The notes: a model not told the origin generated them from the letters alone. A stretch of DNA of 64,000 bases from Octopus vulgaris (GCA_951406725.2 OX597820.1:100068001-100132000), one strand, 5' to 3'; positions 19,036 through 63,545 are shown, numbered from the stretch's first letter. Numbers and translations are program-made.

Positions 19036-19050
19036 ATAATAAAAAATTAA

Positions 19051-19110
19051 ATTAAAGAAAAGACTATTGTCTATAAAGTATACAGTGTAGAGAAGAAAGA
19101 AGATTCGAAC
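19051..19110 (+). pseudogene. 5' part of a decayed LINE ORF1 split by the array/LINE insertion
   Basis: Translates IKEKTIVYKVYSVEKKEDSN, aligning to ISNRRIIYKTFSITNRAIQK of the LINE ORF1; continues in register at 63548. Confidence 0.6.
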
Positions 19111-19250
19111 ACAGCGAGCAAATTTACCCACGTGTGTTGTTATCTGTGATTAGAAGTTGAAATTTTGTTGTGTAAAGTGATTAATATCGCGCGAGGCGTT
19201 TGCCTCCACGTTTGGAAACCTTCAGAAGAAGGTGAATTGACCCTCTAGTC

Positions 19251-20649
19251 ATGGCGACTTACGCGGGGGTCACGGGAAAGAATAATAATGATTCAGCAAT
19301 AATCGTGAAGGATGTTTTCTTTGAGAAAAGCAAAATAAAGAATATGAAAAGCTATTCAAAAGGGAGGGTGATAGCGTGAAGCTAATCCCCCCGCGAAAGC
19401 AAAGGAGGACAAGGAAAACAAAACTGTAACGTATAGAACCCAGGACAAAAGTACAAAGAAACTGGCAAGAGTGGAGATAGCAGAGATCGAAAAATGTCTG
19501 GGAGACATAATGAATAAATCGACCTACGTGAGTAGAGGAAAAAAATTTGGTACGGTGGAGGTGAGATGTGCAACGGAAGAAATTGCAGCCTCACTGGCTA
19601 CCACTGTTCTAAGAGCGGAAACATTTATAATGTGGCCCTCATACAAGGGAAGAAGAGGGGTCCGGGTTAAAATCCCGAATATACCCCCAGAAGTTAAAAC
19701 AGATTGGCTGGCAACAGCTATTCTAGGAGCAGCAGAAGAGGAAGTGGAGGTGGAATCCTTTAAGGAGTCCAACGCAGTAAATTGGAGAGGATATGGGGTA
19801 GAACTGTGTTTGATGGCCACAAAAGAGGACATTGAAAGGTTCCCCTATAGAATAGAAATCGAAGACGAGAAAACCCTCAGTGTAATTGTAGAGGGAAGAA
19901 AGCCAAACTGCTATTTGTGTGGGACAAGGGGGCACATTAAAAAAGAGTGCCCGTTATATGAATTCATGGCGGAGTATGAGAAGGAAATTGAAGAAAAGAA
20001 GAATACGGTAAATGAAAAAGAAAACATAGAAAAGGAGACAAAACAACAAGAGAAAGGAAATAATAAGTCAACGAAGGAAAAAGAAATAAAAGAAAAGAAA
20101 GAAATAGAACCAAAACAGAGTCAGGAAAAGAAAAAGGAAAAAGAAACAACAGGAAAAAAACAAGAGAGAGAACAGAATCAAACGAAAAGAAAAGACGGCA
20201 CACAAAAAGAAAAAGAAAAGGAACATAAAACACGAGAAAAAGAGAGAACAGACAAAGAACCAAAAAGACAAGAGAAGGAAGAAGAAAGAAAAGAAGGCAA
20301 AAAGAGAGAAAGAGAGAAACAAAGAGAGGAGAACAAGGAAGAAATAAGCCCGAAAAGAAAAACGAGAGAAAACGTAGGACGGAAGCAAGATTACTACAAG
20401 TTAATAACCTTCCATTTCAGCCCCGAAATGAAGGAATTGACATGTAGTATGGAGGGACATGTGTGGGTCAACAGGATGACTGATCAGTGGCAGGAGACTG
20501 CTCTGATCCCCGAAGAAAGAGTCGCTGAGTTCCTCAGAGCAGCTGGAGAGAGTGTAATTTTTTACACGGGTGTTCGAGTGAAAGAGCGGCTGCCTGAGGG
20601 CTCAGTGATTGACTTTAGAGACTTGAAAAGTATTATGGAATACGTGTGA
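19251..20649 (+). CDS. ORF1-like CCHC zinc-knuckle protein, copy 1 (two 1-bp deletions near N-terminus)
   Basis: 392 aa open from 19471; CYLCGTRGHIKKEC knuckle; 2 nt shorter than the intact copy. Confidence 0.75.
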
Positions 20650-21033
20650 GATTGTGAGAGGAGAGAGAAGAAAGAAGAGAAAAAAAAAAAAAAAAATTGT
20701 GAACTTTATGTGACGAAAATGTAACCTCTCGATTCCGGGGATCGAGTGGGCATTTGCATCTCATTGTAAATATTCTTTCATTTGTCATTTTTATTTTTAT
20801 TTTTTCCCTTCTTGTCATTTCGCTTTCTTATTTTAAGTTCCCCGATTGTATTGTCCCCTCTATGTTCGCCCCTTGTGGGTAGTAATAAAATCACAGCGAG
20901 CAAATTTACCCACGTGTGTTGTTATCTTTGATTTGAAGTTGAAATTTTGTTGTGTAAAGTGATTAATATCGCGCGAGGCGTTTTGCCTCCACGTTTGGAA
21001 ACCTTCAGAAGAAGGTGAATTGACCCTCTAGTC

Positions 21034-22430
21034 ATGGCGACTTACGCGGGGGTCACGGGAAAGAATAATAATGATTCGGCAATAATCGTGAAGGATGTTT
21101 TCTTTGAGAAAAGTAAAATCAAAGAATATGAAAAGCTATTCAAAAGGGAGGGTGATAGCGTGAAGCTAATCCCCCCGCGAAAGCAAAGGAGGACAAGGAA
21201 AACAAAACTGTAACGTATAGAACCCAGGACAAAAGTACAAAGAAACTGACAAGAGTGGAGATAGCAGAGATCGAAAAATGTCTGGGAGACATAATGAATA
21301 AATCGACCTACGTGAGTAGAGGAAAAAATTTGGTACGGTGGAGGTGAGATGTGCAACGGAAGAAATTGCAGCCTCACTGGCTACCACTGTTCTAAGAGCG
21401 GAAACATTTATAATGTGGCCCTCATACAAGGGAAGAAGAGGGGTCCGGGTTAAAATCCCGAATATACCCCCAGAAGTTAAAACAGATTGGCTGGCAACAG
21501 CTATTCTAGGAGCAGCAGAAGAGGAAGTGGAGGTGGAATCCTTTAAGGAGTCCAACGCAGTAAATTGGAGAGGATATGGGGTAGAACTGTGTTTGATGGC
21601 CACAAAAGAGGACATTGAAAGGTTCCCCTATAGAATAGAAATCGAAGACGAGAAAACCCTCAGTGTAATTGTAGAGGGAAGAAAGCCAAACTGCTACTTG
21701 TGGGACAAGGGGGCACATTAAAAAAGAGTGCCCGTTATATGAATTCATGGCGGAGTATGAGAAGGAAATTGAAGAAAAGAAGAATACGGTAAATGAAAAA
21801 GAAAACATAGAAAAGGAGACAAAACAACAAGAGAAAGGAAATAATAAGTCAACGAAGGAAAAAGAAATAAAAGAAAAGAAAGAAATAGAACCAAAACAGA
21901 GTCAGGAAAAGAAAAAGGAAAAAGAAACAACAGGAAAAAAACAAGAGAGAGAACAGAATCAAACGAAAAGAAAAGACGGCACACAAAAAGAAAAAGAAAA
22001 GGAACATAAAACACGAGAGAAAGAGAGAACAGATAAAGAACCAAAAAGACAAGAGAAGGAAGAAGAAAGAAAAGAAGGCAAAAAGAGAGAAAGAGAGAAA
22101 CAAAGAGAGGAGAACAAGGAAGAAGTAAGCCCGAAAAGAAAAACGAGAGAAAACGTAGGACGGAAACAAGATTACTACAAGTTAATAACCTTCCATTTCA
22201 GCCCCGAAATGAAGGAATTGACATGTAGTATGGAGGGACATGTGTGGGTCAACAGGATGACTGATCAGTGGCAGGAGACTGCTCTGATCCCCGAAGAAAG
22301 AGTCGCTGAGTTCCTCAGAGCAGCTGGAGAGAGTGTAATTTTTTACACGGGTGTTCGAGTGAAAGAGCGGCTGCCTGAGGGCTCAGTGATTGACTTTAGA
22401 GACTTGAAAAGTATTATGGAATACGTGTGA
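21034..22430 (+). CDS. ORF1-like protein, copy 2 (frameshifted)
   Basis: Indels at the C run, an A run and a TG dinucleotide. Confidence 0.7.
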
Positions 22431-22815
22431 GATTGTGAGAGGAGAGAGAAGAAAGAAGAGAAAAAAAGAAAAAAAAAATTGTGAACTTTATGTGACGAAA
22501 ATGTAACCTCTCGATTCCGGGGATCGAGTGGGCATTTGCATCTCATTGTAAATATTCTTTCATTTGTCATTTTTATTTTTATTTTTTCCCTTCTTGTCAT
22601 TTCGCTTTCTTATTTTAAGTTCCCCGATTGTATTGTCCCCTCTATGTTCGCCCCTTGTGGGTAGTAATAAAATCACAGCGAGCAAATTTACCCACGTGTG
22701 TTGTTATCTTTGATTTGAAGTTGAAATTTTGTTGTGTAAAGTGATTAATATCGCGCGAGGCGTTTTGCCTCCACGTTTGGAAACCTTCAGAAGAAGGTGA
22801 ATTGACCCTCTAGTC

Positions 22816-24216
22816 ATGGCGACTTACGCGGGGGTCACGGGAAAGAATAATAATGATTCGGCAATAATCGTGAAGGATGTTTTCTTTGAGAAAAGTAAAA
22901 TCAAAGAATATGAAAAGCTATTCAAAAGGGAGGGTGATAGCGTGAAGCTAATCCCCCCGCGAAAGCAAAGGAGGACAAGGAAAACAAAACTGTAACGTAT
23001 AGAACCCAGGACAAAAGTACAAAGAAACTGACAAGAGTGGAGATAGCAGAGATCGAAAAATGTCTGGGAGACATAATGAATAAATCGACCTACGTGAGTA
23101 GAGGAAAAAAATTTGGTACGGTGGAGGTGAGATGTGCAACGGAAGAAATTGCAGCCTCACTGGCTACCACTGTTCTAAGAGCGGAAACATTTATAATGTG
23201 GCCCTCATACAAGGGAAGAAGAGGGGTCCGGGTTAAAATCCCGAATATACCCCCAGAAGTTAAAACAGATTGGCTGGCAACAGCTATTCTAGGAGCAGCA
23301 GAAGAGGAAGTGGAGGTGGAATCCTTTAAGGAGTCCAACGCAGTAAATTGGAGAGGATATGGGGTAGAACTGTGTTTGATGGCCACAAAAGAGGACATTG
23401 AAAGGTTCCCCTATAGAATAGAAATCGAAGACGAGAAAACCCTCAGTGTAATTGTAGAGGGAAGAAAGCCAAACTGCTACTTGTGTGGGACAAGGGGGCA
23501 CATTAAAAAAGAGTGCCCGTTATATGAATTCATGGCGGAGTATGAGAAGGAAATTGAAGAAAAGAAGAATACGGTAAATGAAAAAGAAAACATAGAAAAG
23601 GAGACAAAACAACAAGAGAAAGGAAATAATAAGTCAACGAAGGAAAAAGAAATAAAAGAAAAGAAAGAAATAGAACCAAAACAGAGTCAGGAAAAGAAAA
23701 AGGAAAAAAGAAACAACAGGAAAAAAACAAGAGAGAGAACAGAATCAAACGAAAAGAAAAGACGGCACACAAAAAGAAAAAGAAAAGGAACATAAAACAC
23801 GAGAGAAAGAGAGAACAGATAAAGAACCAAAAAGACAAGAGAAGGAAGAAGAAAGAAAAGAAGGCAAAAAGAGAGAAAGAGAGAAACAAAGAGAGGAGAA
23901 CAAGGAAGAAGTAAGCCCGAAAAGAAAAACGAGAGAAAACGTAGGACGGAAACAAGATTACTACAAGTTAATAACCTTCCATTTCAGCCCCGAAATGAAG
24001 GAATTGACATGTAGTATGGAGGGACATGTGTGGGTCAACAGGATGACTGATCAGTGGCAGGAGACTGCTCTGATCCCCGAAGAAAGAGTCGCTGAGTTCC
24101 TCAGAGCAGCTGGAGAGAGTGTAATTTTTTACACGGGTGTTCGAGTGAAAGAGCGGCTGCCTGAGGGCTCAGTGATTGACTTTAGAGACTTGAAAAGTAT
24201 TATGGAATACGTGTGA
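22816..24216 (+). CDS. ORF1-like protein, copy 3 (frameshifted)
   Basis: C6 instead of C7; +1 A near 23705. Confidence 0.7.
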
Positions 24217-24598
24217 GATTGTGAGAGGAGAGAGAAGAAAGAAGAGAAAAAAGAAAAAAAAATTGTGAACTTTATGTGACGAAAATGTAACCTCTCGATT
24301 CCGGGGATCGAGTGGGCATTTGCATCTCATTGTAAATATTCTTTCATTTGTCATTTTTATTTTTATTTTTTCCCTTCTTGTCATTTCGCTTTCTTATTTT
24401 AAGTTCCCCGATTGTATTGTCCCCTCTATGTTCGCCCCTTGTGGGTAGTAATAAAATCACAGCGAGCAAATTTACCCACGTGTGTTGTTATCTGTGATTA
24501 GAAGTTGAAATTTTGTTGTGTAAAGTGATTAATATCGCGCGAGGCGTTTGCCTCCACGTTTGGAAACCTTCTGAAGAAGGTGAATTGACCCTCTAGTC

Positions 24599-25998
24599 AT
24601 GGCGACTTACGCGGGGGTCACGGGAAAGAATAATAACGATTCGGCAATAATCGTGAAGGATGTTTTCTTTGAGAAAAGTAAAATCAAAGAATATGAAAAG
24701 CTATTCAAAAGGGAGGGTGATAGCGTGAAGCTAATCCCCCCGCGAAAGCAAAGGAGGACAAGGAAAACAAAACTGTAACGTATAGAACCCAGGACAAAAG
24801 TACAAAGAAACTGGCAAGAGTGGAGATAGCAGAGATCGAAAAATGTCTGGGAGACATAATGAATAAATCGACCTACGTGAGTAGAGGAAAAAAATTTGGT
24901 ACGGTAGAGGTGAGATGTGCAACGGAAGAAATTGCAGCCTCACTGGCTACCACTGTTCTAAGAGCGGAAACATTTATAATGTGGCCCTCATACAAGGGAA
25001 GAAGAGGGGTCCGGGTTAAAATCCCGAATATACCCCCAGAAGTTAAAACAGATTGGCTGGCAACAGCTATTCTAGGAGCAGCAGAAGAGGAAGTGGAGGT
25101 GGAATCCTTTAAGGAGTCCAACGCAGTAAATTGGAGAGGATATGGGGTAGAACTGTGTTTGATGGCCACAAAAGAGGACATTGAAAGGTTCCCCTATAGA
25201 ATAGAAATCGAAGACGAGAAAACCCTCAGTGTAATTGTAGAGGGAAGAAAGCCAAACTGCTACTTGTGCGGGACAAGGGGGCACATTAAAAAAGAGTGCC
25301 CGTTATATGAATTCATGGCGGAGTTTGAGAAGGAAACTGAAGAAAAGAAGAATACGGTAAATGAAAAAGAAAACATAGAAAAGGAGACAAAACAACAAGA
25401 GAAAGGAAATAATAAGTCAACGAAGGAAAAAGAAATAAAAGAAAAGAAAGAAATAGAACCAAAACAGAGTCAGGAAAAGAAAAAGGAAAAAGAAACAACA
25501 GGAAAAAAACAAGAGAGAGAACAGAATCAAACGAAAAGAAAAGACGGCACACAAAAAGAAAAAGAAAAGGAACATAAAACACGAGAGAAAGAGAGAACAG
25601 ACAAAGAACCAAAAAGACAAGAGAAGGAAGAAGAAAGAAAAGAAGGCAAAAAGAGAGAAAGAGAGAAACAAAGAGAGGAGAACAAGGAAGAAGTAAGCCC
25701 GAAAAGAAAAACGAGAGAAAACGTAGGACGGAAACAAGATTACTACAAGTTAATAACCTTCCATTTCAGCCCCGAAATGAAGGAATTGACATGTAGTATG
25801 GAGGGACATGTGTGGGTCAACAGGATGACTGATCAGTGGCAGGAGACTGCTCTGATCCCCGAAGAAAGAGTCGCTGAGTTCCTCAGAGCAGCTGGAGAGA
25901 GTGTAATTTTTTACACGGGTGTTCGAGTGAAAGAGCGGCTGCCTGAGGGCTCAGTGATTGACTTTAGAGACTTGAAAAGTATTATGGAATACGTGTGA
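24599..25998 (+). CDS. ORF1-like protein, copy 4 (single C-run frameshift)
   Basis: 392 aa open from 24820. Confidence 0.75.
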
Positions 25999-26380
25999 GA
26001 TTGTGAGAGGAGAGAGAAGAAAGAAGAGAAAAAAGAAAAAAAAATTGTGAACTATATGTGACGAAAGTGTAACCTCTCGATTCCGGGGATCGAGTGGGCA
26101 TTTGCATCTCATTGTAAATATTCTTTCATTTGTCATTTTTATTTTTATTTTTTCCCTTCTTGTCATTTCGCTTTCTTATTTTAAGTTCCCCGATTGTATT
26201 GTCCCCTCTATGTTCGCCCCTTGTGGGTAGTAATAAAATCACAGCGAGGAAATTTACCCACGTGTGTTGTTATCTGTGATTAGAAGTTGAAATTTTGTTG
26301 TGTAAAGTGATTAATATCGCGCGAGGCGTTTGCCTCCACGTTTGGAAACCTTCTGAAGAAGGTGAATTGACCCTCTAGTC

Positions 26381-27779
26381 ATGGCGACTTACGCGGGGGT
26401 CACGGGAAAGAATAATAACGATTCGGCAATAATCGTGAAGGATGTTTTCTTTGAGAAAAGTAAAATCAAAGAATATGAAAAGCTATTCAAAAGGGAGGGT
26501 GATAGCGTGAAGCTAATCCCCCCGCGAAAGCAAAGGAGGACAAGGAAAACAAAACTGTAACGTATAGAACCCAGGACAAAAGTACAAAGAAACTGGCAAG
26601 AGTGGAGATAGCAGAGATCGAAAAATGTCTGGGAGACATAATGAATAAATCGACCTACGTGAGTAGAGGAAAAAAATTTGGTACGGTAGAGGTGAGATGT
26701 GCAACGGAAGAAATTGCAGCCTCACTGGCTACCACTGTTCTAAGAGCGGAAACATTTATAATGTGGCCCTCATACAAGGGAAGAAGAGGGGTCCGGGTTA
26801 AAATCCCGAATATACCCCCAGAAGTAAAAACAGAATGGCTGGCAACAGCTATTCTAGGAGCAGCAGAAGAGGAAGTGGAGGTGGAATCCTTTAAGGAGTC
26901 CAACGCAGTAAATTGGAGAGGATATGGGGTAGAACTGTGTTTGATGGCCACAAAAGAGGACATTGAAAGGTTCCCCTATAGAATAGAAATCGAAGACGAG
27001 AAAACCCTCAGTGTAATTGTAGAGGGAAGAAAGCCAAACTGCTACTTGTGCGGGACAAGGGGGCACATTAAAAAAGAGTGCCCGTTATATGAATTCATGG
27101 CGGAGTATGAGAAGGAAATTGAAGAAAAGAAGAATACGGTAAATGAAAAAGAAAACATAGAAAAGGAGACAAAACAACAAGAGAAAGGAAATAATAAGTC
27201 AACGAAGGAAAAAGAAATAAAAGAAAAGAAAGAAATAGAACCAAAACAGAGTCAGGAAAAGAAAAAGGAAAAAGAAACAACAGGAAAAAACAAGAGAGAG
27301 AACAGAATCAAACGAAAAGAAAAGACGGCACACAAAAAGAAAAAGAAAAGGAACATAAAACACGAGAGAAAGAGAGAACAGACAAAGAACCAAAAAGACA
27401 AGAGAAGGAAGAAGAAAGAAAAGAAGGCAAAAAGAGAGAAAGAGAGAAACAAAGAGAGGAGAACAAGGAAGAAGTAAGCCCGAAAAGAAAAACGAGAGAA
27501 AACGTAGGACGGAAACAAGATTACTACAAGTTAATAACCTTCCATTTCAGCCCCGAAATGAAGGAATTGACATGTAGTATGGAGGGACATGTGTGGGTCA
27601 ACAGGATGACTGATCAGTGGCAGGAGACTGCTCTGATCCCCGAAGAAAGAGTCGCTGAGTTCCTCAGAGCAGCTGGAGAGAGTGTAATTTTTTACACGGG
27701 TGTTCGAGTGAAAGAGCGGCTGCCTGAGGGCTCAGTGATTGACTTTAGAGACTTGAAAAGTATTATGGAATACGTGTGA
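26381..27779 (+). CDS. ORF1-like protein, copy 5 (frameshifted)
   Basis: C6; -1 A near 27290. Confidence 0.7.
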
Positions 27780-28161
27780 GATTGTGAGAGGAGAGAGAAG
27801 AAAGAAGAGAAAAAAGAAAAAAAAATGTGAACTATATGTGACGAAAATGTAACCTCTCGATTCCGGGGATCGAGTGGGCATTTGCATCTCATTGTAAATA
27901 TTCTTTCATTTGTCATTTTTTATTTTTATTTTTTCCCTTCTTGTCATTTCGCTTTCTTATTTTAAGTTCCCCGATTGTATTGTCCCCTCTATGTTCGCCC
28001 CTTGTGGGTAGTAATAAAATCACAGCGAGGAAATTTACCCACGTGTGTTGTTATCTGTGATTAGAAGTTGAAATTTTGTTGTGTAAAGTGATTAATATCG
28101 CGCGAGGCGTTTGCCTCCACGTTTGGAAACCTTCTGAAGAAGGTGAATTGACCCTCTAGTC

Positions 28162-29561
28162 ATGGCGACTTACGCGGGGGTCACGGGAAAGAATAATAAC
28201 GATTCGGCAATAATCGTGAAGGATGTTTTCTTTGAGAAAAGTAAAATCAAAGAATATGAAAAGCTATTCAAAAGGGAGGGTGATAGCGTGAAGCTAATCC
28301 CCCCGCGAAAGCAAAGGAGGACAAGGAAAACAAAACTGTAACGTATAGAACCCAGGACAAAAGTACAAAGAAACTGGCAAGAGTGGAGATAGCAGAGATC
28401 GAAAAATGTCTGGGAGACATAATGAATAAATCGACCTACGTGAGTAGAGGAAAAAAATTTGGTACGGTAGAGGTGAGATGTGCAACGGAAGAAATTGCAG
28501 CCTCACTGGCTACCACTGTTCTAAGAGCGGAAACATTTATAATGTGGCCCTCATACAAGGGAAGAAGAGGGGTCCGGGTTAAAATCCCGAATATACCCCC
28601 AGAAGTAAAAACAGAATGGCTGGCAACAGCTATTCTAGGAGCAGCAGAAGAGGAAGTGGAGGTGGAATCCTTTAAGGAGTCCAACGCAGTAAATTGGAGA
28701 GGATATGGGGTAGAACTGTGTTTGATGGCCACAAAAGAGGACATTGAAAGGTTCCCCTATAGAATAGAAATCGAAGACGAGAAAACCCTCAGTGTAATTG
28801 TAGAGGGAAGAAAGCCAAACTGCTACTTGTGCGGGACAAGGGGGCACATTAAAAAAGAGTGCCCGTTATATGAATTCATGGCGGAGTATGAGAAGGAAAT
28901 TGAAGAAAAGAAGAATACGGTAAATGAAAAAGAAAACATAGAAAAGGAGACAAAACAACAAGAGAAAGGAAATAATAAGTCAACGAAGGAAAAAGAAATA
29001 AAAGAAAAGAAAGAAATAGAACCAAAACAGAGTCAGGAAAAGAAAAAGGAAAAAGAAACAACAGGAAAAAAACAAGAGAGAGAACAGAATCAAACGAAAA
29101 GAAAAGACGGCACACAAAAAGAAAAAGAAAAGGAACATAAAACACGAGAGAAAGAGAGAACAGACAAAGAACCAAAAAGACAAGAGAAGGAAGAAGAAAG
29201 AAAAGAAGGCAAAAAGAGAGAAAGAGAGAAACAAAGAGAGGAGAACAAGGAAGAAGTAAGCCCGAAAAGAAAAACGAGAGAAAACGTAGGACGGAAACAA
29301 GATTACTACAAGTTAATAACCTTCCATTTCAGCCCCGAAATGAAGGAATTGACATGTAGTATGGAGGGACATGTGTGGGTCAACAGGATGACTGATCAGT
29401 GGCAGGAGACTGCTCTGATCCCCGAAGAAAGAGTCGCTGAGTTCCTCAGAGCAGCTGGAGAGAGTGTAATTTTTTACACGGGTGTTCGAGTGAAAGAGCG
29501 GCTGCCTGAGGGCTCAGTGATTGACTTTAGAGACTTGAAAAGTATTATGGAATACGTGTGA
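28162..29561 (+). CDS. ORF1-like protein, copy 6 (single C-run frameshift)
   Basis: 392 aa open from 28383. Confidence 0.75.
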
Positions 29562-29942
29562 GATTGTGAGAGGAGAGAGAAGAAAGAAGAGAAAAAAAAA
29601 AAAAAATGTGAACTATATGTGACGAAAATGTAACCTCTCGATTCCGGGGATCGAGTGGGCATTTGCATCTCATTGTAAATATTCTTTCATTTGTCATTTT
29701 TTATTTTTATTTTTTCCCTTCTTGTCATTTCGCTTTCTTATTTTAAGTTCCCCGATTGTATTGTCCCCTCTATGTTCGCCCCTTGTGGGTAGTAATAAAA
29801 TCACAGCGAGGAAATTTACCCACGTGTGTTGTTATCTGTGATTAGAAGTTGAAATTTTGTTGTGTAAAGTGATTAATATCGCGCGAGGCGTTTGCCTCCA
29901 CGTTTGGAAACCTTCTGAAGAAGGTGAATTGACCCTCTAGTC

Positions 29943-31343
29943 ATGGCGACTTACGCGGGGGTCACGGGAAAGAATAATAACGATTCGGCAATAATCGTGA
30001 AGGATGTTTTCTTTGAGAAAAGTAAAATCAAAGAATATGAAAAGCTATTCAAAAGGGAGGGTGATAGCGTGAAGCTAATCCCCCCCGCGAAAGCAAAGGA
30101 GGACAAGGAAAACAAAACTGTAACGTATAGAACCCAGGACAAAAGTACAAAGAAACTGGCAAGAGTGGAGATAGCAGAGATCGAAAAATGTCTGGGAGAC
30201 ATAATGAATAAATCGACCTACGTGAGTAGAGGAAAAAAATTTGGTACGGTAGAGGTGAGATGTGCAACGGAAGAAATTGCAGCCTCACTGGCTACCACTG
30301 TTCTAAGAGCGGAAACATTTATAATGTGGCCCTCATACAAGGGAAGAAGAGGGGTCCGGGTTAAAATCCCGAATATACCCCCAGAAGTAAAAACAGAATG
30401 GCTGGCAACAGCTATTCTAGGAGCAGCAGAAGAGGAAGTGGAGGTGGAATCCTTTAAGGAGTCCAACGCAGTAAATTGGAGAGGATATGGGGTAGAACTG
30501 TGTTTGATGGCCACAAAAGAGGACATTGAAAGGTTCCCCTATAGAATAGAAATCGAAGACGAGAAAACCCTCAGTGTAATTGTAGAGGGAAGAAAGCCAA
30601 ACTGCTACTTGTGCGGGACAAGGGGGCACATTAAAAAAGAGTGCCCGTTATATGAATTCATGGCGGAGTATGAGAAGGAAATTGAAGAAAAGAAGAATAC
30701 GGTAAATGAAAAAGAAAACATAGAAAAGGAGACAAAACAACAAGAGAAAGGAAATAATAAGTCAACGAAGGAAAAAGAAATAAAAGAAAAGAAAGAAATA
30801 GAACCAAAACAGAGTCAGGAAAAGAAAAAGGAAAAAGAAACAACAGGAAAAAAACAAGAGAGAGAACAGAATCAAACGAAAAGAAAAGACGGCACACAAA
30901 AAGAAAAAGAAAAGGAACATAAAACACGAGAGAAAGAGAGAACAGACAAAGAACCAAAAAGACAAGAGAAGGAAGAAGAAAGAAAAGAAGGCAAAAAGAG
31001 AGAAAGAGAGAAACAAAGAGAGGAGAACAAGGAAGAAGTAAGCCCGAAAAGAAAAACGAGAGAAAACGTAGGACGGAAACAAGATTACTACAAGTTAATA
31101 ACCTTCCATTTCAGCCCCGAAATGAAGGAATTGACATGTAGTATGGAGGGACATGTGTGGGTCAACAGGATGACTGATCAGTGGCAGGAGACTGCTCTGA
31201 TCCCCGAAGAAAGAGTCGCTGAGTTCCTCAGAGCAGCTGGAGAGAGTGTAATTTTTTACACGGGTGTTCGAGTGAAAGAGCGGCTGCCTGAGGGCTCAGT
31301 GATTGACTTTAGAGACTTGAAAAGTATTATGGAATACGTGTGA
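29943..31343 (+). CDS. Intact 466 aa LINE ORF1-like protein, copy 7 (RRM-like region, CCHC knuckle, K/E-rich linker, ~90 aa C-terminal domain)
   Basis: Uninterrupted MATYAGVTG...SIMEYV; CX2CX4HX4C near 30603-30644. Motifs RGKKFGTVEVR, NIPPE and VEGRKP are shared with the ORF1 of the adjacent LINE. The RRM call is inference. Confidence 0.9.
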   Translation: MATYAGVTGKNNNDSAIIVKDVFFEKSKIKEYEKLFKREGDSVKLIPPAKAKEDKENKTVTYRTQDKSTKKLARVEIAEIEKCLGDIMNKSTYVSRGKKFGTVEVRCATEEIAASLATTVLRAETFIMWPSYKGRRGVRVKIPNIPPEVKTEWLATAILGAAEEEVEVESFKESNAVNWRGYGVELCLMATKEDIERFPYRIEIEDEKTLSVIVEGRKPNCYLCGTRGHIKKECPLYEFMAEYEKEIEEKKNTVNEKENIEKETKQQEKGNNKSTKEKEIKEKKEIEPKQSQEKKKEKETTGKKQEREQNQTKRKDGTQKEKEKEHKTREKERTDKEPKRQEKEEERKEGKKREREKQREENKEEVSPKRKTRENVGRKQDYYKLITFHFSPEMKELTCSMEGHVWVNRMTDQWQETALIPEERVAEFLRAAGESVIFYTGVRVKERLPEGSVIDFRDLKSIMEYV

Positions 31344-52714: not shown

Positions 52715-53089
52715 GATTGTGAGAGGAGAGAGAAGAAAGAAAGAAAAAAAAAAAAAAAATTGTGAACTATATGTGACGAAAATGTAACCTCTCGATTCCG
52801 GGGATCGAGTGGGCATTTGCATCTCATTGTAAATATTCTTTCATTTGTCATTTTTATTTTTATTTTTTCCTTTCTTGTCATTTCGCTTTCTTATTTTAAG
52901 TTCCCCGATTGTATTGTCCCCTCTATGTTCGCCCCTTGTGGGTAGTAATAAAATCACATCGGGAAATTTGCGTGTTGTTATCTGTGATTAGACAGTTGAA
53001 ATTTTGTTGTGTAAAGTGATTAATATCGCGCGAGGCGTTTGCCTCCACGTTTGGAAACCTTCCGAAGAAGGTGAATTGACCCTCTAGTC

Positions 53090-54490
53090 ATGGCGACTTA
53101 CGCGGGGGTCACGGGAAAGAAAAATAATGATTCGTCGATAATCGTGAAGGATGTTTTCTTTGAGAAAAGTAAACTCAAAGAATATGAAAAGCTATTCAAA
53201 AGGGAGGGTGATAGCGTGAAGCTAATCCCCCCGCGAAAGCAAAAGAGGACAAAGAAAACAAGACTGTAACGTATAGAACCCAGGACAAAAGTACAAAGAA
53301 ACTGGCAAGAGTGGAGATAGCAGAGATCGAAAAATGTCTGGGAGACATAATGGATAAATCGACCTACGTGAGTAGAGGAAAAAATTTGGTACGGTGGAGG
53401 TGAGATGTGCAACGGAAGAAATTGCAGCCTCACTGGCTACCACTGTTCTAAGAGCGGAAACATTTATAATGTGGCCCTCATACAAGGGAAGAAGAGGGGT
53501 CCGGGTTAAAATCCCGAATATACCCCCAGAAGTAAAAACAGAATGGCTGGCAACAGCTATTCTAGGAGCAGCAGAAGAGGAAGTGGAGGTGGAATCCTTT
53601 AAGGAGTCCAACGCAGTAAATTGGAGAGGATATGGGGTAGAACTGTGTTTGATGGCCACAAAAGAGGACATTGAAAGGTTCCCCTATAGAATAGAAATCG
53701 AAGACGAGAAAACCCTCAGTGTAATTGTAGAGGGAAGAAAGCCAAACTGCTACTTGTGCGGGACAAGGGGGCACATTAAAAAAGAGTGCCCGTTATACGA
53801 ATTCGTAGCGGAGTGCGAGCAGGAACTCGAAGAAAAGAAGAATACGGTAAATGAAAAAGAAAACATAGAAAAGGAAACAAAACAACAAGAGAAAGGAAAT
53901 AATAAGTCAACGAAGGAAAAAGAAATAAAAGAAAAGAAAGAAATAGAACCAAAACAGAGTCAGGAAAAGAAAAAGGAAAAAGAAACAACAGGAAAAAAAC
54001 AAGAGAGAGATCAGAATCAAACGAAAAGAAAAGACGGCACACAAAAAGAAAAAGAAAAGGAACATAAAACACGAGAGAAAGAGAGAACAGACAAAGAACC
54101 AAAAAGACAAGAGAAGGAAGGAGAAAGAAAAGAAGGCAAAAAGAGAGAAAGAGAGAAACAAAGAGAGGAGAACAAGGAAGAAATAAGCCCGAAAAGAAAA
54201 ACGAGAGAAAACGTAGGACGGAAACAAGATTATTCTACAAGTTAATAACCTTCCATTTCAGCCCCGAAATGAAGGAATTGACATGTAGTATGGAGGGACA
54301 TGTGTGGGTCAACAGGATGACTGATCAGTGGCAGGAGACTGCTCTGATCCCCGAAGAAAGAGTCGCTGAGTTCCTCAGAGCAGCTGGAGAGAGTGTAATT
54401 TTTTACACGGGTGTTCGAATGAAAGAGCGGCTGCCTGAGGGCTCAGTGATTGACTTTAGAGACTTGAAAAGTATTATGGAATACGTGTGA
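53090..54490 (+). CDS. ORF1-like protein, copy 20 (frameshifted)
   Basis: C6, -1 A, +2 near 54233; FVAECEQEL variant. Confidence 0.7.
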
Positions 54491-54873
54491 GATTGTGAGA
54501 GGAGAGAGAAGAAAGAAGAGAAAAAAAAAAAAAAAATTGTGAACTATATGTGACGAAAATGTAACCTCTCGATTCCGGGGATCGAGTGGGCATTTGCATC
54601 TCATTGTAAATATTCTTTCATTTGTCATTTTTACTTTTATTTTTTCCTTTTCTTGTCATTTCGCTTTCTTATTTTAAGTTCCCCGATTGTATTGTCCCCT
54701 CTATGTTCGCCCCTTGTGGGTAGTAATAAAATCACATCGAGGAAATTTACCCACGTGTGTTGTTATCTGTGATTAGACGTTGAAATTTTGTTGTGTAAAG
54801 TGATTAATATCGCGCGAGGCGTTTGCCTCCACGTTTGGAAACCTTCCGAAGAAGGTGAATTGACCCTCTAGTC

Positions 54874-56271
54874 ATGGCGACTTACGCGGGGGTCACGGGA
54901 AAGAAAAATAATGATTCGGCAATAATCGTGAAGGATGTTTTCTTTGAGAAGAGTAAACTCAAAGAATATGAAAAACTATTCAAAAGGGAGGGTGATAGCG
55001 TGAAGCTAATCCCCCCGCGAAAGCAAAAGAGGACAAAGAAAACAAGACTGTAACGTATAGAACCCAGGACAAAAGTACAAAGAAACTGGCAAGAGTGGAG
55101 ATAGCAGAGATCGAAAAATGTCTGGGAGACATAATGGATAAATCGACCTACGTGAGTAGAGGAAAAATTTGGTACGGTGGAGGTGAGATGTGCAACGGAA
55201 GAAATTGCAGCCTCACTGGCTACCACTGTTCTAAGAGCGGAAACATTTATAATGTGGCCCTCATACAAGGGAAGAAGAGGGGTCCGGGTTAAAATCCCGA
55301 ATATACCCCCAGAAGTAAAAACAGAATGGCTGGCAACAGCTATTCTAGGAGCAGCAGAAGAGGAAGTGGAGGTGGAATCCTTTAAGGAGTCCAACGCAGT
55401 AAATTGGAGAGGATATGGGGTAGAACTGTGTTTGATGGCCACAAAAGAGGACATTGAAAGGTTCCCCTATAGAATAGAAATCGAAGACGAGAAAACCCTC
55501 AGTGTAATTGTAGAGGGAAGAAAGCCAAACTGCTACTTGTGCGGGACAAGGGGGCACATTAAAAAAGAGTGCCCGTTATACGAATTCGTAGCGGAGTGCG
55601 AGCAGGAACTCGAAGAAAAGAAGAATACGGTAAATGAAAAAGAAAACATAGAAAAGGAAACAAAACAACAAGAGAAAGGAAATAATAAGTCAATGAAGGA
55701 AAAAGAAATAAAAGAAAAGAAAGAAATAGAACCAAAACAGAGTCAGGAAAAGAAAAAGGAAAAAGAAACAACAGGAAAAAAACAAGAGAGAGATCAGAAT
55801 CAAACGAAAAGAAAAGACGGCACACAAAAAGAAAAAGAAAAGGAACATAAAACACGAGAGAAAGAGAGAACAGACAAAGAACCAAAAAGACAAGAGAAGG
55901 AAGAAGAAAGAAAAGAAGGCAAAAAGAGAGAAAGAGAGAAACAAAGAGAGGAGAACAAGGAAGAAATAAGCCCGAAAAGAAAAACGAGAGAAAACGTAGG
56001 ACGGAAACAAGATTACTACAAGTTAATAACCTTCCATTTCAGCCCCGAAATGAAGGAATTGACATGTAGTACGGAGGGACATGTGTGGGTCAACAGGATG
56101 ACTGATCAGTGGCAGGAGACTGCTCTGATCCCCGAAGAAAGAGTCGCTGAGTTCCTCAGAGCAGCTGGAGAGAGTGTAATTTTTTACACGGGTGTTCGAA
56201 TGAAAGAGCGGCTGCCTGAGGGCTCAGTGATTGACTTTAGAGACTTGAAAAGTATTATGGAATACGTGTGA
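54874..56271 (+). CDS. ORF1-like protein, copy 21 (frameshifted)
   Basis: C6 and -2 A; 364 aa open from 55177. Confidence 0.7.
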
Positions 56272-56654
56272 GATTGTGAGAGGAGAGAGAAGAAAGAAGA
56301 GAAAAAAGAAAAAAAAAATTGTGAACTATATGTGACGAAAATGTAACCTCTCGATTCCGGGGATCGAGTGGGCATTTGCATCTCATTGTAAATATTCTTT
56401 CATTTGTCATTTTTACTTTTATTTTTTCCTTTTCTTGTCATTTCGCTTTCTTATTTTAAGTTCCCCGATTGTATTGTCCCCTCTATGTTCGCCCCTTGTG
56501 GGTAGTAATAAAATCACATCGAGGAAATTACCCACGTGTGTTGTTATCTGTGATTAGAAGTTGAAATTTTGTTGTGTAAAGTGATTAATATCGCGCGAGG
56601 CGTTTGCCTCCACCTGTGGAAACCTTCCGAAGAAGGTGAATTGACCCTCTAGTC

Positions 56655-58052
56655 ATGGCGACTTACGCGGGGGTCACGGGAAAGAAAAATAATGATTCGT
56701 CGATAATCGTGAAGGATGTTTTCTTTGAGAAAAGTAAACTCAAAGAATATGAAAAGCTATTCAAAAGGGAGGGTGATAGCGTGAAGCTAATCCCCCCGCG
56801 AAAGCAAAAGAGGACAAAGAAAACAAGACTGTAACGTATAGAACCCAGGACAAAAGTACAAAGAAACTGGCAAGAGTGGAGATAGCAGAGATCGAAAAAT
56901 GTCTGGGAGACATAATGGATAAATCGACCTACGTGAGTAGAGGAAAAAATTTGGTACGGTGGAGGTGAGATGTGCAACGGAAGAAATTGCAGCCTCACTG
57001 GCTACCACTGTTCTAAGAGCGGAAACATTTATAATGTGGCCCTCATACAAGGGAAGAAGAGGGGTCCGGGTTAAAATCCCGAATATACCCCCAGAAGTAA
57101 AACAGAATGGCTGGCAACAGCTATTCTAGGAGCAGCAGAAGAGGAAGTGGAGGTGGAATCCTTTAAGGAGTCCAACGCAGTAAATTGGAGAGGATATGGG
57201 GTAGAACTGTGTTTGATGGCCACAAAAGAGGACATTGAAAGGTTCCCCTATAGAATAGAAATCGAAGACGAGAAAACCCTCAGTGTAATTGTAGAGGGAA
57301 GAAAGCCAAACTGCTACTTGTGCGGGACAAGGGGGCACATTAAAAAAGAGTGCCCGTTATACGAATTCGTAGCGGAGTGCGAGCAGGAACTCGAAGAAAG
57401 AAGAATACGGTAAATGAAAAAGAAAACATAGAAAAGGAAACAAAACAACAAGAGAAAGGAAATAATAAGTCAATGAAGGAAAAAGAAATAAAAGAAAAGA
57501 AAGAAATAGAACCAAAACAGAGTCAGGAAAAGAAAAAGGAAAAAGAAACAACAGGAAAAAAACAAGAGAGAGATCAGAATCAAACGAAAAGAAAAGACGG
57601 CACACAAAAAGAAAAAGAAAAGGAACATAAAACACGAGAGAAAGAGAGAACAGACAAAGAACCAAAAAGACAAGAGAAGGAAGGAGAAAGAAAAGAAGGC
57701 AAAAAGAGAGAAAGAGAGAAACAAAGAGAGGAGAACAAGGAAGAAATAAGCCCGAAAAGAAAAACGAGAGAAAACGTAGGACGGAAACAAGATTACTACA
57801 AGTTAATAACCTTCCATTTCAGCCCCTGAAATGAAGGAATTGACATGTAGTACGGAGGGACATATGTGGGTCAACAGGATGACTGATCAGTGGCAGGAGA
57901 CTGCTCTGATCCCCGAAGAAAGAGTCGCTGAGTTCCTCAGAGCAGCTGGAGAGAGTGTAATATTTTACACGGGTGTTCGAATGAAAGAGCGGCTGCCTGA
58001 GGGCTCAGTGATTGACTTTAGAGACTTGAAAGGTATTATGGAATACGTGTGA
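56655..58052 (+). CDS. ORF1-like protein, copy 22 (several frameshifts)
   Basis: Several 1-bp indels, mostly in homopolymers. Confidence 0.65.
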
Positions 58053-58291
58053 GATTGTGAGAGAGAGAGAAGAAAGAAGAGAAAAAGAAAAAAATTGTGA
58101 ACTATATGTGACGAAAATGTAACCTCTCGATTCCGGGGATCGAGTGGGCATTTGCATCTCATTGTAAATATTCTTTCATTTGTCATTTTTACTTTTATTT
58201 TTTCCTTTTCTTGTCATTTCGCTTTCTTATTTTAAGTTCCCCGATTGTATTGTCCCCTCTATGTTCGCCCCTTGTGGGTAGTAATAAAATC

Positions 58292-58303
58292 ACATGGAGG
58301 AAA
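58292..58303 (+). repeat. Putative target-site duplication, left copy (ACATGGAGGAAA)
   Basis: Identical 12-mer at 63546-63557, right after the LINE 3' end. Confidence 0.75.
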
Positions 58304-58520
58304 TCAATTTTTTGCGTTATTAGTAAGTTGATATATATTTTTGCTCTCATACTACTTATCTCTGTTATTATATACTGTTGGTCTACCTTTTTTGTCCATT
58401 GTTGTCTAACGGACGAAGTCAACCTTCGCGCGAAGACTTCGCGTTGGTGTTCCCCCCTCAGTGGGGGAAAACTACAATCAATTTAGATTACCAAAGGCTT
58501 GTTAAAGCCATTTGTTCAAG

Positions 58521-59983
58521 ATGGAGTCCCCCATCACTTATTCGCCCGTGACGAGCGAGGATGAATACCCGGCGTTGTCGCCAAGTAAAAAAGAGGCGTT
58601 GTCGCCAAGAAAAAAAGAGGCGCTGTCGCCGAAGAAAAAAGAGGCGGAGTCGCCCAAGAAAATGGTAAAACCAGTACCAGCATCAACTCCAGCAAAAAAA
58701 TTCGCTGAAGTGGCTGGGAAGAAAATTAAAAAAATTAACGTGGACAACCTGGGAAAACATGCGGACTGTGTGTCAAAAGAGGGCACGGAAGTAACCGTGG
58801 CTTCAAACGCCAAAATACAGGAGGATATTTCGAATAGGAGAATAATCTATAAGACATTTAGTATAACAAACAGAGCAATCCAAAAAATAGAGGAGAAAAA
58901 GATTGAAAACTGCTTAAAGCCAATAATGGATAAAATTACGTATATCAATCGAGGGAAGAAATACGGCACAGTGGAGGTGAGATTCACGTCAGAGGAGGTA
59001 GCGAAGAAGCTATCCATGGAACCCATAAAAGCGGAGGATATTGTTCTCCTACCCCTGTATAAAGGCAAGAGAACTTCCAAGATCTCAATGAACAACATCC
59101 CGCCAGAAGCGGATGCCGAAGTCCTAGTGGCAGCAGTTATGGTAGGCCTGGAGGAAAAAATAAACATCCTCCAGGCCACCGTAGAAGAAGAAGAATTCTG
59201 GAAAGGGCAAAAGATAATAATAGCCATACAAGCAGAAGTACAAACCCTGGAAGAGATCCCAGAGACTCTAAGGATAAGCGAAGATGAAAGAGTCACAGTC
59301 TTCGTAGAGGGCAGAAAGCCGAGGTGCTTCGGCTGCGGTAAGAAGGGGCATGTAAGGGCGGAATGCCAGCCCCAACCCAAACCGCAGGAAGCACCTAAGC
59401 CAAAAGAAAAAGAAGACAATGTGTCACCAGAAGCAGCGTCAGACGGCCCAGAAGGGAAGACTGAAGGTGTGGAGGTGATGGTAACAGCAGAACCAGCGGC
59501 GGAGAAAAAAAGAGCGAGGAAAAGATAAATGAGGAGGGGTGGGCAAAAATTATCGGAAAAAAAAAAAAGAAAAACGGAAACCACCCCTCCCAGAGTAATT
59601 TTAAAAAAGAAAAAAGAGTCAATGAACTCATATATGGCCGTAAAAGCATCAAATAGCAGACTCGGAAACGTGTTGGCAGCCATGGCCAATGTGAAGAGAG
59701 TAGAGAAAAAAATGACTTTGTAATTTACAAAATAGACCGGAAGGATTACGGGCGGATAAAGTCAGATTTCTTCCATGACGTAGGCCCACTTAGGTTGGAT
59801 GTAACATCTCCACATATATTCGAGGGCCTACGTCAGACTCCCCCACGAGGCCCAGAAAAAGAGAAGGAAAGAAGAAAAAACCGAACCACTGATATAAAGG
59901 TAAGTAATGGATTACATTTATGTTGGTTGTTTAAATGTGCGCGGCCTGGGAGCAGGCTGGAAGCAAGGTCGCTTCCTGCATGA
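58521..59983 (+). CDS. LINE ORF1 (nucleic-acid-binding, CCHC knuckle), with frameshifts in purine/A runs near 59505-59560 and 59710
   Basis: ATG at 58521; CFGCGKKGHVRAEC; open to 59528. Shifted frames continue through 59529-59723 and then to TGA at 59981-59983; the C-terminal extent is inferred. Confidence 0.75.
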
Positions 59984-62900
59984 TATCAGGTCGCGTAATT
60001 TAGATGTTATTGTTGCTACAGAAACCCGGCTAGAGGGGCCAAGAGGTCTACTCCCGCTGTTTGACGGCTACGAGAGTTTTTTCTCTCCTGGCAGTCCTAC
60101 AGGCGGGAGTGGGGTGTTGGTCCTATTAAAAAGAAACCGGGTTTCTGAGAAAAAGTTAATTTTTGCAGATCCAGAAGGTAGGCTGGTCGTCATGGATTTG
60201 ACGTTCAGTAATGGTAAAGTTATCAGACTGGTTGCAATTTACGCACCCAACCATACAGGGCAAAGTGATTATTTTCGTGAACTAGAAAACTTTCTTGGTA
60301 CTTCGCATTCATTAGTGGTGCTAGGAGACTTTAACACAATTTGCAAAGCGGATGTAGATTATGTTGGCTCGTGTCCAGATAGAAAAGGCAACAGTGGCTT
60401 CATGGAACTGCTAAGCCGCTTTGAGCTAGCAGATCCTTATAGGCTGGAATTTCCGAACGCTCCATTGTGGACATGGTCAAACAGCGACGGATCTTCCAGG
60501 TCGTATCTAGATAGAATACTAATTAGAAAAGTAGACAGTAAAATAGCTAAGTGTCCACAGTTTTACCCGATCAGCTACAGTGATCATAAAATGGTCACTT
60601 GTAAGCTTGACATAGATAAGGTTAAAAATAGAGGATCCGGTTACTGGAAACTTAATACGTCCCTTTTGGCGATTAAGGAGTACAAAGACCGGATTAGGAA
60701 TATAATTCAGAGGGCACTATCTGGTACCATCATTAATAACAAATGGTGGTACGTCCTCAAACGAGCCATCAAGTTTGAGTCTATTAGATAGCATAGGAGT
60801 AGTGGCTAGAGAGGCTAGAAGGGAAACTACTCTAGTTAAGGAATTAGAGGAAGCCATGAAAACTGGCTCTGCGGCTCAGGTGGCGGCCAAGAGACTGGTG
60901 TTAAACCAGCACCTCGAGGCCAAACACATGGGCTGCATTGTCAGGGCTAGAATCCGTCATATGGGATGTGAAGGAATCAACGCCGTGAGATGGGCCCGAG
61001 TGGTGGAAGCTCAGCATGGTAACGATGCCACGATTCGATCTTTGACGAACCAACAAGGTGAGTTGATAAACGAACCCGAGGAGATGTGTGAGGCCTTTCA
61101 GGAGCACTTCGCTCAGCTTTTCGGTGAGTGCGGCGGACTGGATAGGAGGAGGGCCTTTACGGACCTACTCGACGGTCTGCCGCGCTTATCGGGGCAAGAT
61201 GCGGAGGGCTGTGAAGGGCCAATCACGCCTGAGGAGGTGGTTGAGGCAATGGCGGACTGCGGCGCGGGCAAGGCGCCGGGTTTGGATGGTCTACCCTATG
61301 AGTTATATAAGAGTATGCCAGACTTGTTCGGGCACCTACTGGCGGAGGTCTACGCGAACTGGCAGCAGAACGGGCTTATACCCAGATCTGTGCGTCGGGG
61401 AGTAGTGACTCTCGTCAGAAAGGATCCGAGCAAGGGGGAGTGCATTGATAATTTCAGGCCCATCACTCTGCTAAACACAGAGTTGAAGATTTTGGCCAAA
61501 GTGTTATCGAAAAGATTGGCGCGTGTCGCGGATGGTCTGATCGGAGGGGCACAGACATGTGCCGTTCCGGGCAGATCCATTCAGGATAATCTCCATCTAA
61601 TGCGGTACACTATAGAGGGGTTTAATAGTGATTCTGGCAAGGGTGGGGCACTGGTCCATTTAGACCAATCTAAAGCTTTTGATAGGGTCGACCATCGTTA
61701 CCTGGTATCTGCCCTGGCACAGTTCGGGCTGAGCCTTGGATTCCTCAGGTGGATTATCCAAATTTATGATAACATCGACTCGGTAGTTCGGGTGAACGGC
61801 TTCTTGTCGAAGCCGTTCAAAATCAAACGCTCGGTTCGTCAAGGGTGTCCGCTCTCCCCGCTTTTGTACGTGATGGCTCTTGAGCCATTACTGCGAAAAC
61901 TGAGCGGCATCCCGAGACAGCCAGGTAATGGAAAATCAGTGTCAGCGTACGCGGATGACATCACCATCATCGTAACCGAAATGGACCACCTATGTAAAGT
62001 AGGCAAGGCCATAGAGGTGTACGAGACGGTGACAGGAGCAAAAGTTAATCGCGAAAAGTCAGTCGGCTTGCAACTCGGCACCTGGAGAGGCAAGTCGATG
62101 CCTCCTGACAGCGTCGTGGGACGTTGGACGGAGGGTCCGATTAAACTGCTAGGGGTCTGGTTCGGTCCAGACCTCCAAATAGAGAAGAATTGGGGCGAGG
62201 TAACGAGCAAGGTGGCTGCAGTAGCCAAGACCTGGTCTTGGCGGTGGCTATCCCTGAAAGGGAGGGCGGAGGTGGCCAATGTGTTTATCGCATCGGTTAT
62301 CACCTACCGCCTTTCCGTCGTTCCTTGCCCTGATTCGTGGTTGATCAAGTTGGAAAGACAGCTCTTCTACTTCTTGTGGAAGGGCGGGAAACCACTTGTG
62401 AAACGCTCTACTTGCTGTCAACAACCGTTAAAGGGTGGGCTAGGGATGCCTTGGCTGATGATGCGCAGACATGCGCTGAGGTTAAGACATCTGTGGCTCT
62501 ACCTGGATGGTGAACGGGTGTGGTCTTCGCTAGCAAAACTGATGTTTCCCAAGTTCACTAGTTTCGGTGGATGGGAAACCTGGCTGAATCGTAGATCGAA
62601 ACTTGGTACTTGGTACACGGAGTGTCGCAAGGCTCTCCTGCTATTCCGTCGCTCGGGCAACGCCTGCGGTGGGGGTTCCACCACTTTCTTCTATAGAGGG
62701 TTGGTAGAGGCGGAATGTGAAGATACCTTGGGGAAACCCTAGGTCTCGACGATAACCAGCTGGCCAGTCTGTTCCGACGTACGTTCGAGCCAAGGACACT
62801 GGACAACTTCCAGAAGTCTCTGGCATGGCAATGCTACAGAGGAGCTCTACCTGTTCGGGATAAACTCGCAAGGCACGGTGGCCAAGACAGTCCGATATGT

Positions 62901-63299
62901 CCAAGATGCGGGCGGGATAGGGAAACCGTCCCGCACGCGATTGTTCATTGTCCGGACGTGTCTGAGGTGTGGGTTTATGCCGAACACCTGTTGTCAGGTA
63001 CACGAAGAGTACAGCTGTCGACTGAGTCGATTACAAAAATTGACCCACCGGATTTCCTCGTGAATGAAGGTAAGTTTCGTTTTCTCGTTGTAGTAGCAAT
63101 CGCGAAAGAGGTGATATGGAAGACGAGAATGAAAGGTTTACAGTCAGGCAAGTTCATCTCCGGCCCTGGTTTGATGAATTATTTCATCTTTCACCTGAAA
63201 AGGAAGATAGGGCTGGAGAGAATATGCCTGACTAGGAGAGCGTATGAAGAACGATGGAAGGATGTAGCACGGAAGTTGCGAATGAAAGTTACAACATAA
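59907..63299 (+). CDS. LINE ORF2: APE endonuclease + reverse transcriptase + C-terminal Cys/His motif (two frameshifts, near 60788 and 62732)
   Basis: EN motifs LNVRGL, ETRL, IYAPN, GDFN, LDRIL, SDH; linker GYWKLNTSLL; RT motifs KAPGLDG, FRPITLLN, KAFDRV, RQGCPLSP, YADD, KGGLG; C-terminal CPRCGRDRETVPHAIVHC. Typical of Tx1/L1. Confidence 0.93.
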
Positions 63300-63499
63300 A
63301 TGTAATACCAAGTGCAACCAAAAGTATCAGTGGGGAGGCGGGGCTCGTGGGGTCCGAGCTAAACCCGCACCCACTCCACCCGTAATGTCTTCCGGTCTGT
63401 CCTATCACTCGATTTCTGTCCATTTATTGTTATTCATGAAAATTTTTAAACCCGATTTATTGTAAAAACCCATTCGTTTGTCTGACCCCATCATCAGAA

Positions 63500-63545
63500 T
63501 GTATTGTCCCATCTGTGTTCGCCCCTTGTGGGTAATAATAAAACA
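63500..63545 (+). other. Conserved 3' terminal sequence shared by LINE, array units and a SINE; includes polyadenylation-like AATAAA
   Basis: tgtattgtcccatctgtgttcgccccttgtgggtaataataaaa vs unit tgtattgtcccctctatgttcgccccttgtgggtagtaataaaa, 41/44 identical. Confidence 0.85.

Follow-up and report, generated by a model that had tools for sequence, protein, structure and literature searches.

ORF1-only retrotransposons stacked with an L1/Tx1-group LINE at a Helitron-borne site in Octopus vulgaris

Non-autonomous long interspersed elements (LINEs) that retain open reading frame 1 (ORF1) have been listed from the Jockey, L1, and CR1 groups, with HeT-A, HAL1, and Ag-Sponge as the examples (PMC5786205). 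ORF1-only elements make up ~40% of Drosophila telomeric families, and the same study describes such loss as absent in non-telomeric Jockey elements (PMC13534243). Tx1 elements are known to target non-autonomous DNA transposons: Tx1L inserts in Tx1D, and Tx1-Mar, together with the short interspersed element (SINE) SINEU-3, inserts in Mariner-N4_AMi, where SINEU-3 tandems flank a target duplication and were read as sequential insertions (PMC4494074). R1 tandems begin as a double insertion and then expand by unequal exchange (10.1101/158386). In Octopus vulgaris, a recent repeat annotation reports 13 recently active L1-Tx1 families (PMC13282606). Here we analyze a 64,000-nucleotide stretch of the O. 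vulgaris genome (GCA_951406725.2 OX597820.1:100068001-100132000; referred to as the window), in which 22 head-to-tail copies of a unit coding for ORF1 only (family A) directly precede a LINE that we assign to the L1/Tx1 group. Unit and LINE have a single 12-bp insertion site in common, which lies within a non-autonomous Helitron of ~1 kb, and we consider it likely that the unit borrows the endonuclease and reverse transcriptase (RT) of the LINE by way of a common 3′ tail and that elements stack at the 5′ junction.

An ORF1-only retrotransposon and its partner LINE

BLAST and alignment delimit the 22 units at positions 19111 to 58291 (plus strand, as are the other annotated parts of the insertion and its host). 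Each is 1775 to 1785 bp long, identity among them is 97 to 100%, and every unit has AATAAA within its final 10 nucleotides and no poly(A) at its end. The LINE (58292 to 63545) adjoins the last unit in the same orientation, and its 3′ tail (63497 to 63545) matches that of unit 22 (58243 to 58291), which is also common to other families described below, over 47 bp at 91% identity or over 61 bp at 85%. A sequence-only reading of this DNA had described both the array of ~1.78-kb units and the LINE with a common 3′ end, and the alignments agree with it. It had also taken each unit for a self-contained cassette with a 466-amino-acid (aa) coding sequence and the LINE for a full one; the unit structure stands, with the frame open only in unit 7, and the LINE has ORF1, endonuclease, RT, and zf-RVT, with frame breaks in ORF1 and ORF2 of the window copy.

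Family A is dispersed and mobile. The genome holds ~130 copies of the unit (129 start-codon sites and 137 sites for the 3′ untranslated region), among them solos, 5′-truncated copies, and short arrays. Fifty-seven A loci were mapped by hand, with four small fragments excluded: 47 have the host flank, 6 lie at a second repeat, 3 lie elsewhere, and 1 has target heads with the host flank out of view. Seven full-length solos carry both flanks, and 5′-truncated copies are bounded by target duplications of 14 bp (locus L241) and 18 bp (locus L240). These copies contradict the notion, considered in the sequence-only reading, that the unit never occurs elsewhere as an independent insertion. Off-target A sites all start with ACATG. 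No ORF2 was found behind an A-type ORF1 in any locus seen among the matches listed (29 of the 129 start sites lie outside them), and the earlier statement that the unit has neither endonuclease nor RT was borne out in the window and in the mapped loci. Family A thus falls among the ORF1-present non-autonomous LINEs, and its target duplications, 5′ truncations, and fixed 3′ end are marks of target-primed reverse transcription. The unit is a non-autonomous non-long-terminal-repeat retrotransposon coding for ORF1 only.

Unit ORF1 is under purifying selection. Between subfamilies, the ratio of nonsynonymous to synonymous polymorphism (pN/pS) was 0.10 to 0.14 in the core in four of four pairs (not independent of one another) and 0.25 to 0.41 elsewhere. 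Of the 22 window units, one (unit 7, 29943 to 31343) has the 466-aa frame open; genome-wide, 5 of the 88 full-length units that were aligned, from the ~130 copies, have it open. Frameshifting indels lie in homopolymer runs in 127 of 165 cases, and run lengths vary among seven window units that are otherwise identical, which makes sequencing errors the likely source of most of the breaks. Shared variants on the two sides of the commonest break were synonymous rather than nonsynonymous by 10:4 and 14:5 (the latter for codons 47 to 87), and this excess on both sides indicates that the long frame is the selected one.

The unit 7 protein has a CCHC knuckle (residues 220 to 235), a K/E-rich linker, and a C-terminal domain (CCHC by Pfam). 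Fold matches of a structure model predict two domains resembling RNA recognition motifs (RRMs) at residues 47 to 135 and 135 to 218 (Z up to 9.2); the mean predicted local distance difference test score is 59, with values of 80 to 88 over much of the core, and the folds matched by this low-confidence model did not include L1 ORF1p. Protein relatives at 96 to 99% have O. vulgaris as their source label, and frameshifted pieces (P0002-P0009, P0189-P0193) stand in public databases as uncharacterised octopus genes; an exact look-up of nine natural proteins in a protein collection matched no entry. A 453-aa protein of Octopus bimaculoides (P0045) groups with the ORF1s of A and of a related family, A2 (47% identical in the core; support 87/77), a hint that this lineage was present before the two species separated. 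Most sequence words of the unit are present in 20 sequencing runs from 9 studies, with no RNA run among those listed.

In the window LINE, ORF1 (58521 to 59870, end approximate) is broken near 59504/59868, and ORF2 (59907 to 63299), which encodes endonuclease, RT, and zf-RVT domains (Pfam PF03372, PF00078, and PF13966), is broken near 60787 and 62729. Copies elsewhere are 99% identical; 5 of the 10 best have an open 1131-aa ORF2, and the 10 best full-length copies are all host-site insertions. Among solved structures, its ORF2 is nearest to L1 ORF2p (E value of 6.7e-65, versus 4.9e-26 for R2). An APE endonuclease, an RT, and a C-terminal zinc motif, nearer to L1 than to R2, agree with Tx1, as does a type I ORF1 (CCHC by Pfam and two modelled RRM-like folds), a kind of ORF1 described as fitting Tx1 in non-mammalian animals (PMC5203782). 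One of 32 hits carries a Tx1 name, at 26%. The LINE is provisionally placed in the L1/Tx1 group by domains and structure similarity. Its ORF1 shares 36% identity with unit ORF1 over 197 aa and lies on a separate branch (deeper forks of the tree do not resolve), so descent of the unit from the adjacent LINE by recent deletion was ruled out. An internally deleted LINE derivative was seen at L198 and L200, where the 5′ 730 bp of the LINE are joined to its last ~250 bp in a ~1-kb element; these loci are two stacks with common multi-element blocks.

Related families use the same tail and site. ORF1-only families A2, B, C, C′, and D occupy the same host site as A and all carry the shared tail; their ORF1s are 25 to 70% identical to A in the core and 27 to 36% identical to LINE ORF1s. 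Family B alone has 229 sites, and no endonuclease or RT was present in 20 B/C-ended insertions (10 kb examined for each). LINE2, a full-length family with open frames and 88% DNA identity to the window LINE, forms tandem arrays of 5 to 7 at the second target (L111-L113 and L212-L214; L114-L116; L119-L120). LINE3 (L210:2530-7750) has open ORF1 and ORF2, the latter 72% identical, with a 5′ motif and tail of B/C type; at L210 it sits 5′-most in a stack, and most of its other copies lie elsewhere. It was rejected as the specific partner of B and C: tail and 5′ motif are shared, yet none of the 12 3′ junctions read runs straight into the right flank of the host. An abundant SINE-like repeat (L033:310-360, L093, L114) holds the same ~45-bp tail motif internally and may have taken up the tail as well, or supplied it. 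The helper/satellite pair of the sequence-only reading survives in that an ORF1-only unit shares tail and site with a LINE that has copies with an open ORF2, but the system is larger than a pair: it counts at least five families with ORF1 only and three autonomous LINE families related to one another.

A target site carried by a Helitron

The empty site, GAAGATTTGAAC-ACATGGAGGAAA-GCAC, had 373 exact matches (control, 0), and filled 3′ junctions had 132 (control, 0). Tails of the first 100 filled sites, classified by eye, were LINE-type in 62, B/C-type in 31, and A-type in 7. Helitrons begin with TC after A and end with a hairpin followed by CTAG before T. The host 5′ end was found in 13 of 20 empty copies, after A in 11, and its 3′ end was found in 14 of 20 copies, before T in 13; by these ends, the host appears to be a non-autonomous Helitron. 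In the window, its 5′ part (18441 to 19110) has the A-TC boundary and (TGTC)n near the 5′ end. The 3′ part (63546 to 64000) begins with the 3′ copy of the target, ACATGGAGGAAA (63546 to 63557), and its hairpin and CTAG-T end lie 35 bp past the window end. The target site itself falls within a frame-broken ORF1 relic carried by the Helitron, with up to 45% identity to ORF1s of the LINE/unit group (E value of ~1e-15); the relic starts in the final ~60 bp of the 5′ part and continues through the first ~170 bp of the 3′ part.

Flanks of filled and empty sites are equally diverged (left, 4.1 versus 3.8%; right, 7.0 versus 6.6%), while the inserts are ~99% alike, indicating that the host spread first; carriage of the insertions as Helitron cargo was ruled out on the same ground. 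The window lies in a cluster of segmental duplicates of 95 to 99% identity (C7:100.01-100.15 Mb), in which one of the four host sites is empty, one holds the window stack, one holds a 159-bp B end, and one holds a 95% LINE and an A fragment. A 23-kb duplicate 25 kb upstream carries the window's site empty (L243:3993-4009, ~6 kb before window base 1), with 50 mismatches over 13,351 bp on the left side, so the whole 44-kb stack is younger than the duplication or haplotype split. Another empty/filled host pair (C19:52-72 kb) was not used, being too different in ungapped comparison (15/420 and 26/300).

No Rfam match was found in four loci when small nuclear, transfer, and ribosomal RNA genes were considered as the target. 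The host flank contains a TATAAAG motif together with a short inverted repeat (window 19071 to 19100), ~28 nucleotides ahead of the junction with B, C, and D 5′ ends; this region is a candidate promoter or recognition site. The second multicopy target (L226, L227, L229, L230, L232, L234, L043) takes A units as well as LINEs, and the A units there have heads from the Helitron target and B/C-type tails, a tail swap. This second target gave no Rfam match and no ORF1 likeness (best E value, 0.02).

Growth of the stacks

Allele order, junction heads, flank duplications, and cross-contig relationships, taken together, make repeated insertion at the 5′ junction the most likely way in which stacks grow. 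Within arrays, the older subfamily lies 3′ and the younger 5′; from first to last unit, old-type alleles went up in 10 of 15 arrays, down in 1, and were equal in 4 (0 of 5000 permutations). In the window array, units 1 to 19 are of the young subfamily and units 20 to 22 are intermediate. For units that stand in the same array, the closest relative is often on a different contig. Heads (the first 9 nucleotides) were compared in 61 non-window units, of which 37 match the downstream neighbour and only 6 match the nearest relative elsewhere. When only changed heads are counted, duplicated neighbours are set aside, and the neighbour is either a LINE or a diverged unit whose own head is changed, 14 of 22 equal the neighbour's and 20 of 22 are within 2 nucleotides of it. 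Two units that are 2 substitutions apart each carry the head of their own array. Window heads drift stepwise, from the exact target ACATGGAGGAAA at the start of the LINE (58292 to 58303) to three changes at unit 1 (19111 to 19122), whose head, ACAGCGAGCAAA, is an altered copy of the 12-bp target, and at L187 a site-private variant recurs at all three junctions. Left-flank duplications lie between stacked elements at L171, L173, L179, L184, and C3:20.08 Mb, and they too carry site-private variants.

We propose that unit RNA would be packaged by its own ORF1, and that LINE ORF2, acting in trans, would bind the tail and nick just before ACATG; such mobilization is likely, given the shared tail, site, and age. 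Integration would leave the upstream flank and a target-like head at the 5′ junction, still usable. The 3′ junction would be without the upstream flank, and the next element would thus enter in front. The head would often be altered or swapped for the RNA's own head. In the window, units 1 to 14 would have multiplied locally, by unequal exchange or by re-insertion from the array's own transcripts, and A2, B, C, C′, and D would exploit the same niche.

Several observations weigh against this scheme. Among 61 joins mapped, 30 run from unit to LINE and 1 from LINE to unit (two further LINE-to-unit joins lie at the second target), an asymmetry not expected if families active at the same time inserted one after another at random. 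B/C/D junctions often have no target head at all, and heads can also be RNA-borne, since Helitron-type heads occur at the second target. Blocks of several elements, 6.8 kb (98.4%) and 5.0 kb (99.7%) long, are common to two loci, so a block can be copied whole. The label "old" denotes distance from a window unit, with moderate support: private changes number 3.9 (2.1 without one outlier) versus 0.4, and the outgroup A2 sides with old by 37 to 25. Two other autonomous families also carry the shared tail; the ORF2 donor need not be only the window LINE. One C run has a frame-breaking length in 65 of the 88 aligned units.

The position of the LINE, nearly always 3′-most, together with the shared blocks and with head-less B-B joins of varied 5′ ends, would also fit stacks laid down in one event, in which ORF2, having started on its own LINE RNA, switches end to end to ORF1-only RNAs as templates, or else copies the read-through transcript of an existing stack. 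A target-like head would make the end of the complementary DNA identical to the nicked primer and so favor chaining, and the R2 RT is reported to jump between templates in vivo (PMC3414825). We nevertheless judge this unlikely: heads track the array and not the unit lineage, flank duplications separate elements, stacks are layered by subfamily, and the target follows immediately after solos and after arrays made of units only.

Less probable still is that the array arose mainly by DNA-level amplification of one dead copy, or by assembler over-expansion, with the LINE next to it by accident. The window does hold the longest A array seen, in a segmentally duplicated region; units 5 to 10 and 13 are identical, as are units 2 and 3, and one allele occurs in 14 window units and in 0 of 66 units elsewhere. 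The seven identical units and the confined allele make local multiplication of units 1 to 14 likely, with a likely contribution from DNA-level amplification, a process for which expansion of R1 dimers by unequal exchange is a precedent (10.1101/158386). The assembler may have over-expanded the identical run, and the count of 22 is that of the assembly. Amplification does not readily account for 15 distinct substitution types among the 22 units, for the minor alleles, of which 52 of 65 turn up again in units outside the window, for units 15 and 17 to 20, whose distance to units on other contigs is no greater than that to most window units, or for the 30 places where a unit adjoins a LINE. For the family as a whole, the solos and target duplications already refute such an account. 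A host tandem gene family derived from a domesticated ORF1, which purifying selection, public gene models for some copies, and the A-like O. bimaculoides protein might recall, is very hard to reconcile with 99%-identical copies scattered through the genome at one repeat site, with the 5′-truncated copies and the target duplications, and with paralogous sites of which some are filled and others empty.

Beyond repeated 5′ insertion, a wider picture can be entertained tentatively, and as a whole we regard it as possible but doubtful. At least five ORF1-only lineages of 26 to 70% mutual identity would form a long-lived guild that lives on a few shared ORF2 donors and competes for first place behind the host flank, which carries the TATA-like motif noted above. 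Their niche would have been made by a Helitron that captured and multiplied a LINE ORF1 fragment, competition for first place would make each stack a dated insertion record, and ORF2 would be lost through stacking. No autonomous parent of the ORF1-only lineages was found. If the picture were true, the stacks would be an interstitial, host-useless counterpart of fly telomere arrays, and stacking alone would select for ORF2 loss.

Elsewhere in the window, positions 6584 to 7326 and 10211 to 10951 are inverted copies of each other (743 bp, 97% identical) and may mark the two ends of a DNA transposon of ~4.4 kb.

Comparison with known systems

No description of an octopus ORF1-only stacking system was found in the literature searched, with Repbase, Dfam, and subscription journals outside its coverage. 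A term search of the O. vulgaris repeat annotation text did not return the word ORF1, and its library may hold these sequences unlabelled (PMC13282606). With the octopus elements, the few ORF1-only retrotransposons on record gain a site-specific member from the L1/Tx1 group, and mixed head-to-tail arrays gain an independent example away from telomeres. They pose a testable question: why array-forming elements repeatedly lose ORF2, and what is gained by supplying their own ORF1. Insertion order and junction scars are preserved in the stacks, a natural archive of how 5′ ends are joined, which is the step of target-primed reverse transcription that is understood least. The elements seem to have been active recently, and with hundreds of defined empty sites they make a compact targeting system. 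At a practical level, the public entries for uncharacterised octopus genes noted above include copies of these elements.

Each ingredient of the system has a precedent in HeT-A, HAL1, Tx1-Mar/SINEU, or R1 tandems; the combination appears undescribed. HAL1 is dispersed and is not known to be site-specific or stacked. Like the octopus unit, HAL1 (L1 clade) and Ag-Sponge (CR1 clade) are non-autonomous and keep ORF1; the published list has Jockey, L1, and CR1 examples and none from Tx1 (PMC5786205). HeT-A with TART/TAHRE comes close in that several ORF1-only families in one genome depend on the ORF2 of another family and lie in mixed head-to-tail arrays (PMC13534243; PMC5786205). As described in those sources, the fly elements are members of the Jockey clade that are added to chromosome ends and are useful to the host, whereas the octopus elements belong with the L1/Tx1 group, are sequence-targeted, make target duplications, and are apparently added at the 5′ side. 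The octopus arrays are interstitial (the window lies 100.07 Mb into a contig of 128.55 Mb) and the ORF2 is L1-like, unlike the telomeric HeT-A/TART arrangement.

In Tx1-Mar/SINEU-3, as in octopus, a LINE and a non-autonomous passenger share a target in a non-autonomous DNA transposon (PMC4494074). There, the passenger is a non-coding SINE and the hosts are of piggyBac, Mariner, or Harbinger type; the octopus passengers code for protein, the host is a Helitron, and stacks reach 23 elements and are layered by subfamily. R1 resembles the octopus system in that site-specific insertion remakes the target and in that a target copy stands between tandem elements, whose number can grow (10.1101/158386), and the SIDEs of R2/R1 are likewise non-autonomous forms at the same site (PMC3414825). 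R1 and R2 differ in their ribosomal DNA target, in being autonomous or non-coding, and in having one family per array. In sum, the octopus system resembles HeT-A/TART in its dependence on a partner and R1 or SINEU-3 in its stacking, and it is not telomeric.

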